This document shows positions 45,868 through 52,183 of a stretch of 64,000 bases of DNA, in pieces. A program made the translations under genes and the position numbers. Origin of the DNA: Elusimicrobiota bacterium (GTDB lineage Bacteria > Elusimicrobiota > Elusimicrobia > UBA1565 > UBA9628); assembly GCA_030696455.1 (NCBI GenBank), contig JAUYSH010000039.1, forward strand, positions 379 to 64,378, read 5' to 3'. The notes beneath the pieces are model-generated. The model saw only the letters and a list, made by a program, of their open reading frames with translations, had not been told where the DNA came from and ran no database searches. Each line of letters starts with the position of its first letter. Position 1 is the first letter of the stretch.

Positions 45868-47091
45868 ATGAACCATACGAACGCCATCCACGTCCGCCCC
45901 GGCGAATCGGGGCGCCTCATCGTCGTTCTTCCCTATTCCTCCGAAAGGGTGGCGAAGATCAAGACCGTCCCCGGCCGCCTTTGGCACGGGCCGGAGAAGT
46001 ACTGGTCCGTGCCGTTCGACCCGGAGGCCGCCGCCCGCCTTCAAACGCTCTTCAAGGGCGACCGCCTCGAGCTCGACGCCTCGCTTCGCCCTGGAGCGGC
46101 CGTACTGAGCCCAGCCTCGGACGCGCTCGTGGAAAGGGTCCGCGCCGCCGTCCGCGCCCGCCACTTCAGCCCCCGAACGGGAGAGATCTATGCGGGCTGG
46201 ATCCGCCGTTTTCTCGCCCAAGCGGGCCCCGCACCGGAAAAGCTCGGCGAAGTCGAGATCGGCCGGTTTCTCTCCTCCTTGGCCACCGACGCCCACGTGA
46301 GCGCCTCGACGCAGAACCAAGCCCTCCACTCGATCCTCTTCTTCTACGAACATGTGCTCGGCATGGATATCGCGCGGCTGGACGGGGTCGTCCGGGCCAA
46401 GCGGGCCGTCAGAGTCCCGGTCGTTCTCAGCCGCCACGAGGTCCTCGCCGTGCTCAACTGCATGTCCGGCACTCCGCGCCTCATGGCGACACTTCTCTAC
46501 GGCGCGGGCCTGCGCGTGCTCGAGTGCTGCCATCTGAGGGTCAAGGACATCGACTTCGACCAGAACCAACTCGTCGTTCGCGCCGGCAAGGGCAACAAAG
46601 ACCGGTGCACGCCTCTTCCCGCCTCCAGCGTCGCGCCGCTGCGCCTGCACCTGGACGCCGTGCGCCGCCAGCACCAGGAAGACCTCCAAAAAGGCCTCGG
46701 CTGCGTCGAGCTTCCCGACGCGCTCTCGCGCAAGTATCCCAACGCCCCCAAGGAGTGGGGCTGGCAATGGGTGTTTCCCGCCACCAGCCATTACACCGAC
46801 CGCCTGACCGGCCAAAGGCGCCGCCACCATCTACATGAATCCGTTCTGCAGCGCGCCTTCAAGGTCGCCCGCCTCAAGGCGGATCTCTCCAAGCCCGCGA
46901 GCTGCCACACCCTGCGGCACTCCTTCGCCACCCACCTCCTCGAGGATGGCTACGACATCCGAACCATCCAGGAATTGCTGGGCCACAACGACGTCAGCAC
47001 GACCATGATTTACACCCACGTCCTCAACCGGGGCGGCCGCGGCGTCCAAAGCCCGGCGGATCGCCTGGGCCTTGACGGGAGCCGGGCATGA
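45868..47091 (+). CDS. intI: integron integrase (tyrosine recombinase, IntI)
   Basis: Catalytic R/HxxR/Y context ([33 protein letters not shown]). IntI-specific insertion [47 protein letters not shown]. An alternative ATG lies at 45859. Confidence 0.9.
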
Positions 47092-47129
47092 TGTATACTC
47101 ATTGTAGATACATACCGGAGCTTGATGCC

Positions 47130-47372
47130 ATGAACGCGACCGTCCAAAAATGGGGCAACAGCCTGGCCCTTCGCATACCGAGCTCCGTCGCCAAGGATAT
47201 TCGATTGCGCCAAGGATCTCCCGTCGAGGTCGTCGTCGAGAACGGACGCATGATCGTCAAGCCGACGAAAAAGCGCAAACCGTCTCTTTCCCTCCTCCTC
47301 AAAAACATAACGAAAGATAATCGCCATGCCGAGCAGGGCTGGGGCGCGCCCATCGGCAAGGAAGCCTGGTAA
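47130..47372 (+). CDS. mazE: MazE/AbrB-SpoVT-family antitoxin
   Basis: [30 protein letters not shown], the SpoVT/AbrB swapped-hairpin motif. TAATG overlap with mazF. Confidence 0.85.
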
Positions 47373-47704
47373 TGGCCTACTGCCCGAAGCAGGGCGACGT
47401 AGTCTGGCTCTCGTTCAACCCCCAGGCGGGGCATGAACAGGCCGGGGTTCGACCCGCCCTGACGCTTTCTCCCGAGTCGTACAATCGCAAGGCGGGGCTG
47501 GCGCTCTTCTGCCCGATCACGACCCAGGCCAAAGGCTACCCGTTCGAGGTCCCCCTGCCGGCCGGGCTCAAGGCGTCCGGCGTCGTGCTTTCGGATCAGG
47601 TGAGGAGCCTCGATTGGCAGGCTCGGAATGCCCGGTTTTCATGCAGGGTGCCTGCGGGTGTGCTTGCCGACGTGCAGAGCCTGCTCGAAGTCCTCCTAAG
47701 CTGA
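47372..47704 (+). CDS. mazF: MazF/PemK-family endoribonuclease toxin
   Basis: P.QGDVVWLSFNPQAGHEQAG.RPAL.LSP..YN...GL...CPITT..KGYPFEV.L.....G.VL.DQV.S.DW, the MazF pattern. Confidence 0.85.
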   Translation: MAYCPKQGDVVWLSFNPQAGHEQAGVRPALTLSPESYNRKAGLALFCPITTQAKGYPFEVPLPAGLKASGVVLSDQVRSLDWQARNARFSCRVPAGVLADVQSLLEVLLS

Positions 47705-47828
47705 CCCCCCGCCCGCGCTAGCCTGACCCCGCCTGCAAGGTTTGCCGATTTCTATATTCCGCCACAAACCTGGCATACCCCTTGTTTTCCAATTACAATC
47801 CGACAATACTGACTATTCAGGTCACTTT

Positions 47829-47859
47829 GTTAGCCTGACCAATCTAATAGTAGTTAGAC
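47829..47859 (+). other. putative attI core (two GTTAGNC boxes; crossover box GTTAGAC at 47853-47859)
   Basis: GTTAGCC (47829-47835) and GTTAGAC (47853-47859). The latter is the exact reverse complement of the R'' box GTCTAAC that opens the first attC (48447). The extent of attI to the left is unknown. Confidence 0.5.
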
Positions 47860-47895
47860 GTCCTATATGCGCAAACGAACGGCATTTAGAACCCC

Positions 47896-47924
47896 TTGAC
47901 TTGTATATACATTTGAATTACACT
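47896..47924 (+). promoter_or_regulatory. putative cassette-internal promoter TTGACT-17-TACACT for brnTA
   Basis: -35 at 47896-47901, -10 at 47919-47924, ATG at 47936. Confidence 0.55.
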
Positions 47925-47935
47925 AAATAAGGATC

Positions 47936-48193
47936 ATGGACATTCGCTGGTCGCTCGCTAAGAGCGAAGAACTTAAACGCACTCGAGGCGTTTCTTTTGA
48001 GGAGATCATCCACGCTGAGCTGATAACCGCGAAAAAGAACCCGAGCCGGTCTCATCAAAGCATCCTGTTGTTCAAATTCAAGGACTACATTTGGGTCGTT
48101 CCCTACGTGACGGATGAGGAAGATATATTTTTGAAGACTTTGTTTCCGAGTCGGAAGTACACGAAAATGTGGAGGGCAGGAGAGCTAGCATGA
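47936..48193 (+). CDS. brnT: BrnT-family toxin (cassette 1)
   Basis: W...K.....R.RGVSFEE N-terminal pattern and ...I.VVPYV...E.IFLKT..PSRK. 85 aa. ATGA overlap with brnA. Confidence 0.7.
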   Translation: MDIRWSLAKSEELKRTRGVSFEEIIHAELITAKKNPSRSHQSILLFKFKDYIWVVPYVTDEEDIFLKTLFPSRKYTKMWRAGELA

Positions 48194-48438
48194 AACGAAT
48201 AAAACTAGACCGCGAGGAAAGCGCCATTGAATCCGCTCTGCTTCGGGGTGAGTACCGCCCTGTGCCTAAGGCGGAATTTGACAGCATCGCTCAGGCCATC
48301 GCTCGCCGGAAGAAGGATGCCGTGTTAAATATTCGGGTAAACAGCACGGATCTGGCCTGCATTAAGCAGAAAGCCAAGAAGCTGGGGATTCCGTATCAAA
48401 CCCTGGTCTCCGAACTTCTGCATCATTACGCGGTGTAG
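48190..48438 (+). CDS. brnA: BrnA-family RHH antitoxin (cassette 1)
   Basis: NIRVNSTDLACIKQKAKKLGIPYQTLVSELLHHY, the BrnA/CopG C-terminal motif. Confidence 0.75.
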   Translation: MKRIKLDREESAIESALLRGEYRPVPKAEFDSIAQAIARRKKDAVLNIRVNSTDLACIKQKAKKLGIPYQTLVSELLHHYAV

Positions 48439-50785: not shown

Positions 50786-50798
50786 AAGTGCCGGGGAC

Positions 50799-50878
50799 GC
50801 CTAACCATCGGATTCTGCCGCCCGCGGCCTCGTTTGGATGGACTTGTATAGCCGCGGCGGCAGATCCTGAGCGTTCGG
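50799..50878 (+). repeat. attC site 3 (80 bp)
   Basis: R'' is GCCTAAC, R' is GTTCGGC. Near-identical core to attC 1 and 2. Confidence 0.85.
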
Positions 50879-50890
50879 CAACTTAACAAC

Positions 50891-51301
50891 ATGACAGAAA
50901 TCTTTGTCTCTGAGCCGCACAAATCGAAAAATCCGGAATCGGCTAAACGGCGTGTTTTACTCCAAGACGACGGCTACTACTGGTTTCTTTACTGGTATTT
51001 TGAGGCCGCGAGTTTGCCTCCCAGGAAGCACGAATTGATTGATCTCTACGCTCACGCGGAACTGTTTGGTTACCAGCTACAGCGCTTCATCGAAGAGTTG
51101 GACGAAGCACGGACGGATGTTCTTTCCAAGCCGGAACAATGGAGCGTACGCGTCGGATGGAACGGCGAAACCATGTCAAAAGAGACTGAACGATATGAGT
51201 CAGTAGAACGCTCTCGGATGGTCGCGCTGATTGATGATCTTCTTTCAATTGCGCGCGAAGCTCACGATCAGGATCTAAAGTTGTTTTCAATCGGAGATTA
51301 G
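50891..51301 (+). CDS. hypothetical cytoplasmic protein (cassette 4)
   Basis: 136-aa ORF starting 13 nt after the R' box. No family recognised. Confidence 0.55.
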   Translation: MTEIFVSEPHKSKNPESAKRRVLLQDDGYYWFLYWYFEAASLPPRKHELIDLYAHAELFGYQLQRFIEELDEARTDVLSKPEQWSVRVGWNGETMSKETERYESVERSRMVALIDDLLSIAREAHDQDLKLFSIGD

Positions 51302-51305
51302 AATT

Positions 51306-51386
51306 CCCGAACCATTGGCTTGACCAGCCGGCGGCCTCGTTTGGGTGGATAGTTGAAGCGGCCGCCGCTCACCCCCTGCGTTCGAC
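51306..51386 (+). repeat. attC site 4 (81 bp, diverged arms, conserved centre GGCGGCCTCGTTTGG)
   Basis: R'' is CCCGAAC (6/7 complement of the preceding GTTCGGC). R' is GTTCGAC. Confidence 0.7.
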
Positions 51387-51538
51387 GGCAGAACCTCAGC
51401 TAATGGCAGAAACATATAATTGAACGGCAAGCCAGAAGCAATCTCGGAGGCGCCGGTTTCAAAATAAGCGCTGGAGAAATTTGGCCTCGTGGGCAATTGA
51501 TGCGATTCCTCATTAACCGTTGATAGGAGCCTTAAAAC

Positions 51539-51985
51539 ATGAAAATACCTTCCATGACGTTCATCTTGTTCTTGATATTCGGCTTCATCGCCAATAACGC
51601 GCGGGCGCAGGTCGCCGTCGGCTCATCGCCTAAGTGCATTTTAAAAGAATGGGATAAAAAAACGGAGAAATGGAAAGAGGTATGGGCCGGAGCCATACCC
51701 CCTGAGTATCAAATCAAGCATCAACCTTGGTCACTGATCGCCTGGCAGGGCGGGTCGTTGGATATCTCGTCCAAAGACTGGAAAGACATAGAAAAAACCC
51801 ACAATGGACGAACGACAATACATCTGCTCAAGTTTGATGGGAAAGTCCAAATCAGCATTGGGCATATCGACTCTTCGAATGCGAAAAATCATGTGCCCAC
51901 TGATGCTATGGCCTGGGCATCCGACGACTCAAAAGAAATCGGAGTTGGCGCCTTTGAAAAGAAGTTGCAGTGCAAACTGCGCTGA
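51539..51985 (+). CDS. hypothetical secreted protein (cassette 5)
   Basis: Signal peptide MKIPSMTFILFLIFGFIANNARAQ. AGGAG RBS. 148 aa. Confidence 0.6.
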   Translation: MKIPSMTFILFLIFGFIANNARAQVAVGSSPKCILKEWDKKTEKWKEVWAGAIPPEYQIKHQPWSLIAWQGGSLDISSKDWKDIEKTHNGRTTIHLLKFDGKVQISIGHIDSSNAKNHVPTDAMAWASDDSKEIGVGAFEKKLQCKLR

Positions 51986-52092
51986 CCGGAGGTCTCGTCT
52001 CGGCTGTTGTGGAACATTGGAAGGAGGAACCTCTGGTCCGAAGAAGAACTACAGGAGGCCAAGCACGCGCGACGGCGTTGGCACCTGTCTCC

Positions 52093-52183
52093 GGCGAACC
52101 ATTGGGCCTTGCCGACCATCTCACGTCGGTGGCCGAGATCGATGACGATCACGAGCAGTTCGCCGTGCCGCACTGCGTCAGGC
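52093..52183 (+). repeat. attC site 5, degenerate (terminal site of the array)
   Basis: R'' is GGCGAAC plus CATTGG as in the other sites. The right end has CACTGCGT context as in attC 1, but the box reads GTCAGGC (52177-52183). An alternative canonical GTTCGCC lies at 52158-52164. Confidence 0.4.

Follow-up and report, generated by a model that had tools for sequence, protein, structure and literature searches.

Integrons whose integrase gene (intI) is read on the same strand as the gene cassettes form a type that already has a name, the inverted integrase integron (PMC13323075, PMC3575428, PMC3607928). They are known as the inverted integrase group of intI phylogenies (PMC3575428) and include the integrons of Treponema (PMC3607928); in those of the Treponema denticola type, intI points toward the attachment site attI and lies on the cassette strand (PMC3607928, PMC13323075). 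Here we analyze a 64,000-nucleotide stretch of contig JAUYSH010000039.1 (the window, to which all coordinates refer) from an uncultured bacterium of ~70% GC, and we propose, with a probability of about 0.9, that it carries a chromosomal integron of the inverted integrase type made up of intI, a mazEF toxin-antitoxin (TA) module, attI and five cassettes. The locus belongs to this type by its layout, with intI directed toward attI, and its likeness to the T. denticola integrons is one of layout. It also shares with inverted-integrase integrons a chromosomal setting, cassettes mostly of unassigned function and attC sites that resemble one another within the array. It differs from them in its host lineage (the relatives of its integrase are from Elusimicrobiota or Nitrospira), in having mazEF between intI and attI, and in an additional integrase domain with a marginal likeness to the HARP/XPB damage-recognition domain (DRD) fold.

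Two other well-described systems provide points of reference. The Vibrio cholerae superintegron likewise forms a sedentary array in the chromosome, its attC sites are nearly identical and its cassettes include TA systems; the core of its integrase (VchIntIA) is ~41% identical to that of the window over 313 residues and contains the same IntI-specific insertion, and its attC sites share the geometry of those in the window, in which R and L boxes are combined with an unpaired spacer and a pair of extrahelical bases. However, the Vibrio intI is divergent from its ~180 cassettes, whereas that of the window is co-directional with five; VchIntIA is without the N-terminal extension; and the Vibrio TA systems are cassettes, whereas mazEF in the window is part of the platform. 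The class 1 integron has the same three-part platform (IntI1, attI1 and the cassette promoter, Pc), and its attI likewise carries direct-repeat boxes before a GTT crossover. Its Pc is inside the divergent intI1 and faces the integrase promoter (Pint), whereas the candidate Pc of the window is within attI and downstream of intI, so that there is no face-to-face promoter arrangement. Inverted-integrase integrons are already recognised, and integron integrases are already annotated in metagenome-assembled genomes (MAGs) of Elusimicrobiota; the integron itself adds little.

Integrase, cassette array and attI

The gene at 45868–47091 (+ strand, 407 residues) encodes an integron integrase, as a previous reading of the window, made without database searches (the sequence-only reading), had concluded from its diagnostic insertion. 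The protein scores 421.6 bits against the TIGR02249 "integron integrase" profile (cutoff 265) and falls below the cutoffs of the XerC, XerD and IntI1-equivalog profiles of NCBIfam (318.6 bits against a cutoff of 435 for the IntI1-type equivalog NF011946). Over residues 90–400 the protein matches VchIntIA from end to end (PDB 2A3V, E 1e-74), and the IntI-specific insertion (...RRRHH) that separates IntI from other tyrosine recombinases aligns with that of VchIntIA residue by residue; 2A3V is also the top structural match when Foldseek is run with an AlphaFold model (E 5e-22). The catalytic residues R216, K241/K244, H347, R350, H373 and Y382 are all present, and 45 IntI homologs show little or no variation at the R, K, H, R, H and Y positions. 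The named relatives are from Elusimicrobiota or Nitrospira, the closest of them being Elusimicrobiota MAGs. A search for Escherichia coli-type LexA boxes found none near intI; the sole local match is a palindrome in cassette 2, and overall there are no more matches than expected by chance. In three relatives with the same attC family (L089, L119 and L123; loci are cited by number) intI is split into two frames near residue 372, with an attC still downstream, and is probably a pseudogene.

Downstream of intI, and on the same strand, are four 81-nt sites of a single repeat family, all on the + strand: attC1 (48447–48527), attC2 (48696–48776 as a repeat, or 48696–48772 plus AGGC at 50259–50262 without the insertion sequence (IS) that interrupts it after the GTT of the R' box), attC3 (50799–50879) and attC4 (51306–51386), the last with a diverged stem. 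We searched with three covariance models. R1 was built from the four attC sites of the window, R2 from 44 sites that R1 had picked out, both in the window and at the loci of related integrases, and R3 exclusively from 46 sites in 11 loci of the classical divergent layout from Proteobacteria and Verrucomicrobia. All three models recognise attC1–4. With R1 and R2, attC1 scores 104 and 69 bits, and R3 assigns attC1–4 scores of 47.6 (E 1.6e-11), 39.8 (E 3.3e-9), 44.7 (E 1.2e-10) and 33.7 bits (E 2e-7), all on the + strand; the − strand of the same sites scores at most 12 bits and the rest of the 64 kb at most 16 bits with R3, and none of the models found anything comparable outside the array. A scan of the whole window against Rfam gave a single tRNA-Gln, and the repeats matched none of its RNA families. 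As had been noticed previously, attC1–3 are nearly identical to each other. The motif RYYYAACCATYGG at no more than one mismatch occurs only in these three sites in the window (0, 1 and 0 mismatches); in attC4 and attC5 it has two mismatches, a level that also gives chance matches elsewhere in the window.

The four sites have the anatomy expected of attC, with R''/R' boxes of the RYYYAAC/GTTRRRY kind, L boxes, a central spacer that stays unpaired, extrahelical bases on one arm and a loop that varies. Relative to shuffled sequence, attC1–3 have z-scores of −4.5, −3.5 and −3.2, and refolding of attC1 returns the 17-bp stem (4+6+7) with T48462 and A48469 unpaired that had been claimed for it. In an alignment of 43 distinct attC sites from many phyla, which was itself fitted to the structure and whose pair counts have to be read accordingly, 88.7% of the cells are paired compared to 28–45% when the partner is slid, and in 24 of 26 pairs both partners have changed in a compensatory way; the AAC/GTT cores do not vary. 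The column composition shows two unpaired columns 7 nt apart on the 5' arm, together with an unpaired central spacer. We take the spacing of 7 nt between bulges to be the same in attCaadA7. The first bulged base (top strand) is T in the window but mostly G in the sites of relatives.

The fifth of the sites put forward in the sequence-only reading is a remnant, in contrast to the four that the covariance models recognise. It consists of an R''+L'' arm with a pair of R boxes (52093–52164, + strand; GGCGAAC at 52093 and GTTCGCC at 52158–52164) and is assigned by its repeat family and fold. Its left arm, 52093–52117, is 83% identical to that of attC2, the L' arm is lost, and a search for this missing right arm found none. 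When 51950–53200 was scored alone, the remnant reached 5.9 bits and a second weak attC candidate at 52551–52630 reached 6.9 bits, neither of which is significant. The coordinates previously given for attC1, attC2 and attC4 stand, while attC3 was off by one nucleotide, with its GTTCGGC box at 50873–50879 and not at 50872.

The R boxes connect these sites to one another. The 7-mer that closes one site is the exact complement of that which opens the next for GTTAGAC at 47853 and GTCTAAC at 48447 and for GTTCGAC at 48521 and GTCGAAC at 48696, and it matches at 6 of 7 positions for GTTCGGC at 50873 and CCCGAAC at 51306 and for GTTCGAC at 51380 and GGCGAAC at 52093, as had been read before. Removal of the IS adds a further exact pair, in which the attC2 R' box GTTAGGC complements the attC3 R'' box GCCTAAC. 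This pattern fits cassette insertion at G/TT, but the orientation of the array does not follow from it, because the pattern is symmetric and R-box complementarity cannot reveal orientation. It is the bulges on the 5' arm and the ORFs (open reading frames) ending just before the attC sites that place the cassettes on the + strand, the same as intI, and that identify the − strand as the recombinogenic "bottom" strand.

By the G/TT rule the array divides into five + strand cassettes, the first four closed by an intact 81-nt attC and the fifth by the remnant. Cassette 1 (47854–48521) contains a BrnT-like/BrnA-like TA pair (47936–48193 and 48190–48438; CopG_antitoxin 1.8e-5, with a weak BrnT match), and the arrays of L057 and L066 contain homologous pairs. 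Cassette 2 (48522–48770, 249 bp) has no ORF apart from a non-conserved one of 24 codons. The ORF list places single ORFs in cassette 3 (50259–50873 plus TT at 48771–48772; ORF 50273–50785, a predicted membrane protein of 170 residues), cassette 4 (50874–51380; ORF 50891–51301, 136 residues) and cassette 5 (51381–52158; ORF 51539–51985, 148 residues with a signal-peptide-like N-terminus), and PADLOC, NCBIfam and Pfam gave no family or function for the proteins of these three cassettes. All of the cassette ORFs are on the + strand and end 5–14 nt before the attC in cassettes 1, 3 and 4 and 107 nt before the attC5 remnant in cassette 5. The GC content is 0.48–0.59 across 47500–53000 compared to ~0.70 in the flanks, in line with the earlier remark that the array is AT-richer. 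Relatives of cassette 2 (48528–48695), including L110:4046–4213 and L107:680–847, are found at 70–97% identity in at least ten other arrays, sometimes twice per array, and the 97% identity of some copies suggests recent exchange. Some members of this family hold an optional perfect palindrome of 20 nt, AACTGTTTCTGGAAACAGTT, and RNAalifold found no covariation in the family.

The attI site lies at 47715–47859 (+ strand) and is defined by a homology breakpoint and by an alignment of 11 loci whose integrases are 58–80% identical to that of the window. It has direct GYTAGCCTGACC boxes at 47717–47728 and 47829–47840 and an R box, AATAGTAGTTAGAC. The window is nearly identical to L086 and L084 up to ...TAATAGTAGTT and shows no similarity beyond; since this homology stops exactly at the GTT, we place the G/TT crossover at 47853–47855. 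The 11-locus alignment conserves a promoter-like block (CCTGGC..TTTTCC..TAcAAT), a GTTAGCCGACC box and a AATCACAAGTT R box with its AAGTT junction. Within the promoter-like block, a consensus scan picks out CTGGCA-18-TACAAT at 47770–47799 (+ strand) as the candidate Pc, of which CTGG and TAnAAT are retained across the loci and the 18-nt spacing is, by eye, the same in at least four. The same scan gives promoter-like sites on the + strand before mazE (47072–47099, TTGACG-16-TATACT, 10 of 12 positions; a candidate mazEF promoter) and in cassette 1 (47896–47924). A sigma-54 reading of CCTGGCA was rejected, the −12 element not being conserved. For this clade, it is now possible to define a conserved attI that has a promoter-like element inside it, and with it a Pc of inverted integrons that can be put to the test.

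The activity of the integrase, the use of promoters and the functions of mazEF and of the extra N-terminal domain of IntI are our inferences, and the mechanism that follows is taken over from what has been established for integrons. IntI would bind the folded bottom (−) strand of an attC site, where the bulges on the R''/L'' arm would set the choice of strand, and would recombine it with attI at G/TT to insert the cassette, while recombination with a neighbouring attC would excise it. The chimeric R boxes would be the footprint of such insertions, with each cassette starting with the complement of its own R''. The cassettes are probably transcribed from the candidate promoter in attI. No terminator-like site was found on the + strand between intI and the array, so read-through is possible and transcription from intI and mazEF may contribute. 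The IS in the R' box of attC2 would have been inserted later, and it probably blocks read-through into cassettes 3–5.

Several points weigh against a working integron of this kind. The weak fold of attC4 (z −0.3), the degenerate attC5 and the IS in the R' box of attC2 mean that the array may be partly decaying. Its end lies somewhere in 52164–52930, a region of intermediate GC (0.58). Models R1–R3 all stem from the window's own sites by iterative search, and R3 is thus not fully independent. Promoter-like matches are no more frequent in the region than in shuffled sequence (4 compared to 2.7 ± 1.4), which makes the site at 47072–47099 weak evidence for a mazEF promoter. The alternative to which some of these points lead is that the locus is an inactive relic, with genuine parts in which cassette exchange has ceased. 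The one-armed attC5, the weak stem of attC4, the IS in attC2, the small number of cassettes (five) and the frameshifted intI of L089, L119 and L123 all speak for it. Nevertheless, intI of the window is full length with all catalytic residues, attC1–3 are nearly identical with strong folds, three junctions have exactly matching chimeric R boxes, other arrays hold copies of cassette 2 at 97% identity, and attI is where the contigs of close relatives stop, which is what an array that varies within populations would produce; we therefore regard a relic as unlikely and retain the reading of a chromosomal integron of the inverted type. Look-ups of the exact proteins returned only short contigs from the same sample as the window, SRR13727523, all with the same arrangement including the IS, and among them no empty site and no other cassette order.

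Additions to the platform: mazEF and an N-terminal domain

Between intI and attI lies a mazEF module that had been overlooked before. The antitoxin gene mazE (47130–47372, + strand, 80 residues; MazE_antitoxin PF04014, 8.5e-14) is followed by mazF (47372–47704, + strand, 110 residues), whose start overlaps the mazE stop and which encodes an endoribonuclease toxin (NF007386, 131 bits against a cutoff of 120; PemK PF02452, 4.8e-26). This is the type II TA layout, an AbrB-fold MazE gene and then an overlapping PemK/MazF gene. The order intI-mazE-mazF is found in all of the close relatives L081–L086 (IntI 79–80% identical), where mazE is in the same place at 77–80% identity and where the contigs break 80–270 bp after mazF; L046 also has mazEF between intI and attI. 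The attI block directly follows intI in relatives without a TA module (L126, L141, L098, L103, L007 and L004), follows mazEF in the window and in L081–L086, follows brnTA in L002 (2195–2729) and follows a CopG-like gene in L149. From its position after either intI or varied TA modules, we conclude that the TA modules are insertions between intI and attI and not cassettes. As an addiction module, mazEF would most likely guard the platform against being deleted, and it may also supply a promoter. Coupling of mazEF to intI was not found described in the literature that we searched.

The opposite assignment would make mazEF the first cassette, with attI confined to the 38-nt gap that separates intI from mazE and with 47715–47859 as a degenerate attC. 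It has some appeal in that chromosomal integrons often contain TA cassettes (PMC13108822), that mazEF homologs (41 and 60% identity) are true cassettes with attC sites in L019 and L056, and that 47715–47859 ends in a GTTAGAC box. We nonetheless consider it very improbable: a search with R1–R3 found no attC after mazF, the boxes in 47715–47859 are direct and not inverted repeats, the same block directly follows intI in the TA-less relatives and follows BrnTA in L002, and the homology between the window and L086 is unbroken from mazF to the GTT at 47853. We accordingly keep mazEF as part of the platform.

A second TA-related gene lies on the other side of intI. It is an orphan CopG/BrnA-like antitoxin gene (45512–45829), situated between an HNH gene and intI (segment 45431–45863), and the gene is flanked by a direct repeat of ~20 bp, AGGGAACTTTTCGCYCCCC, at 45431 and 45832. 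The syntenic L084 is without this gene and has a gap of only 57 nt, and the closest homologs (48–50%) are cassette-borne antitoxins in L057 and L066.

The integrase itself carries an extra N-terminal domain at residues ~5–70 (45880–46077, + strand), which is absent from VchIntIA and IntI1. The ~70 N-terminal residues are kept in all 120 of the homologs listed, and the domain was detected in IntIs of the Elusimicrobiota/Nitrospirota type and not in inverted IntIs of the Acidobacteriota type. AlphaFold2 predicts a beta-beta-alpha-beta-beta-alpha-beta fold with a predicted local distance difference test score (pLDDT) of ~90. The top Foldseek match of the domain is an archaeal XPB damage-recognition domain (prob 0.97–0.99, TMq ~0.55, E 0.03), and the HARP domain of SMARCAL1 (4O66) is also matched (prob 0.8), the E-values of the top matches being 0.03–0.1. 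With the Pfam HARP model (PF07443), 14 of 18 homologs match at E ≤ 1, the best at 0.0012 and all under the gathering score. The predicted structure therefore suggests a HARP/XPB-DRD-like fold, if marginally. In SMARCAL1 and XPB this fold recognises forked or distorted DNA. The literature that we searched contained no description of an N-terminal domain of this kind in IntI.

Taken with mazEF, this leads us to a tentative proposal that we hold to be possible but doubtful, namely that the Elusimicrobiota/Nitrospirota-type subclade of IntI gained a HARP/XPB-DRD-like domain, that a TA module was repeatedly fixed between intI and attI, and that the result is a mechanistically distinct platform if the domain helps to find attC hairpins or forks. 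If true, this would be an integron platform with a built-in sensor of DNA structure and an addiction module guarding it. The two additions could bear on how an integrase searches for folded single-stranded substrates and on how a platform resists loss.

Layout and relatives

Co-directional layouts, in which the array is downstream of intI on the same strand, are found in 33 of the 45 related genome loci with attC matches, with 11 divergent (all from Proteobacteria or Verrucomicrobia) and one mixed; this share served as a stand-in for placing IntI in the inverted-integrase clade. Eight metagenome loci are also co-directional, and the layout extends over Acidobacteriota, Eisenbacteria, Gemmatimonadota, Elusimicrobiota and Nitrospirota. 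The sequence-only reading was right that intI of the window has the direction of its cassettes, all parts being on the + strand by the positions of the ORFs and of the bulges on the 5' arm, but its description of the layout as uncommon does not hold among these relatives. Since the divergent cases are all from Proteobacteria or Verrucomicrobia and the co-directional ones are the majority, the divergent textbook layout may be a proteobacterial peculiarity. Two loci depart from both the classical and the inverted type: L020 has attC sites on both sides of intI (+ strand upstream and downstream) and L064 has them on both strands.

In metagenomes, an 18-mer from the left arm of the attC sites identified 64 stretches. 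As such a scan might return mostly chance matches, these were filtered with the covariance model, which left true attC sites in at least 40 of the 64 loci; R1 confirms 114 sites, in tight arrays of a single orientation (14 sites in 6.8 kb in L099 and 6–8 each in L098, L110 and L124). Where an array end is assembled (L126, L141, L149, L098 and L103), an intI 62–67% identical to that of the window lies directly upstream on the same strand. That the 81-nt palindromes might instead be a generic repetitive extragenic palindromic (REP)-like or intergenic repeat, adjacent to a tyrosine recombinase by coincidence, draws on their being GC-rich, imperfect and intergenic and on the inspection of only 64 kb of the genome, but it deserves next to no credence in view of the absence of copies in the window outside of the array, their canonical attC structure (R boxes with AAC/GTT cores, a spacer left unpaired and a pair of bulges, 7 nt apart, on a single arm), the recognition of attC1–4 by a model from classical-integron sites (R3) and the single-orientation metagenome arrays whose ends are directly downstream of intI.

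Judged from the sequence around it, the inverted integron of the window is in a chromosomal setting. The genes upstream of it (HNH/Carb_kinase/TsaE/TsaD) are shared with L084, which continues to ribosomal protein L25 and Pth. The intI-mazEF-attI platform occurs in two contexts, either after a radical-SAM (S-adenosylmethionine) gene (L081–L083 and L086) or after HNH/Carb_kinase/TsaE/TsaD (the window and L084–L085), which suggests that the platform moves or that the genomes were rearranged.

The IS1111-type element and the right flank

The element that interrupts attC2 (48773–50258, − strand, 1486 bp) belongs to the IS1111 family and to its attC-targeting group. Its DEDD transposase (49052–50161) matches the IS110 family model NF033542 with 265 bits, and the element has subterminal inverted repeats of 21 nt, terminal extensions of 3 and 7 nt and a non-coding region of 279 nt after the transposase gene (tnp), a geometry that agrees with the description of IS1111 (PMC11187229). 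The insertion point is GCGTT^AGGCG, and removal of the element restores a perfect attC2 R' box, GTTAGGC. Like ISPst6, ISKpn4 and ISPa21 of the IS1111-attC group, it combines a DEDD transposase with subterminal inverted repeats, 7-nt/3-nt extensions and a non-coding region, and it occupies a fixed position at one attC end (PMC11187229); this likeness is one of geometry and not of transposase comparison, and the host of the window, unlike those of the described group, is not a proteobacterium.

An IS with 53% transposase identity in L019 (12500–14001 and 18165–19660) has the same junction, GCGTT^AGGCG, in two attC sites. The non-coding regions of both elements contain GCGTTA ~64 nt and (A/C)CGCCT ~190 nt after the tnp stop, in an order that agrees with the seekRNA rule of IS1111. 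The two motifs are candidate seekRNA guides on this sequence match, which is suggestive; they are short (6 nt and 5–6 nt) and ~125 nt apart. Another relative of the element, in L025 (~13895–15342), is inserted in the R'' end of an attC. The integrons that harbour these elements are non-proteobacterial.

Beyond the attC5 remnant, the segment 52164–52930 holds two overlapping small ORFs (52206–52598 and 52595–52909), the second of them Cys-rich with a signal-like N-terminus, and no significant attC. PADLOC, NCBIfam and Pfam gave no function for the ORFs in 52206–52909, which may be either decayed cassettes or flanking genes. The right flank proper (53006–56566) encodes a DUF2703 protein, an extracytoplasmic function (ECF)-type sigma factor (ORF 53566–54099) and a SAM-dependent methyltransferase-like protein (ORF 55520–56566) that resembles, by eye only, an arsenite methyltransferase.

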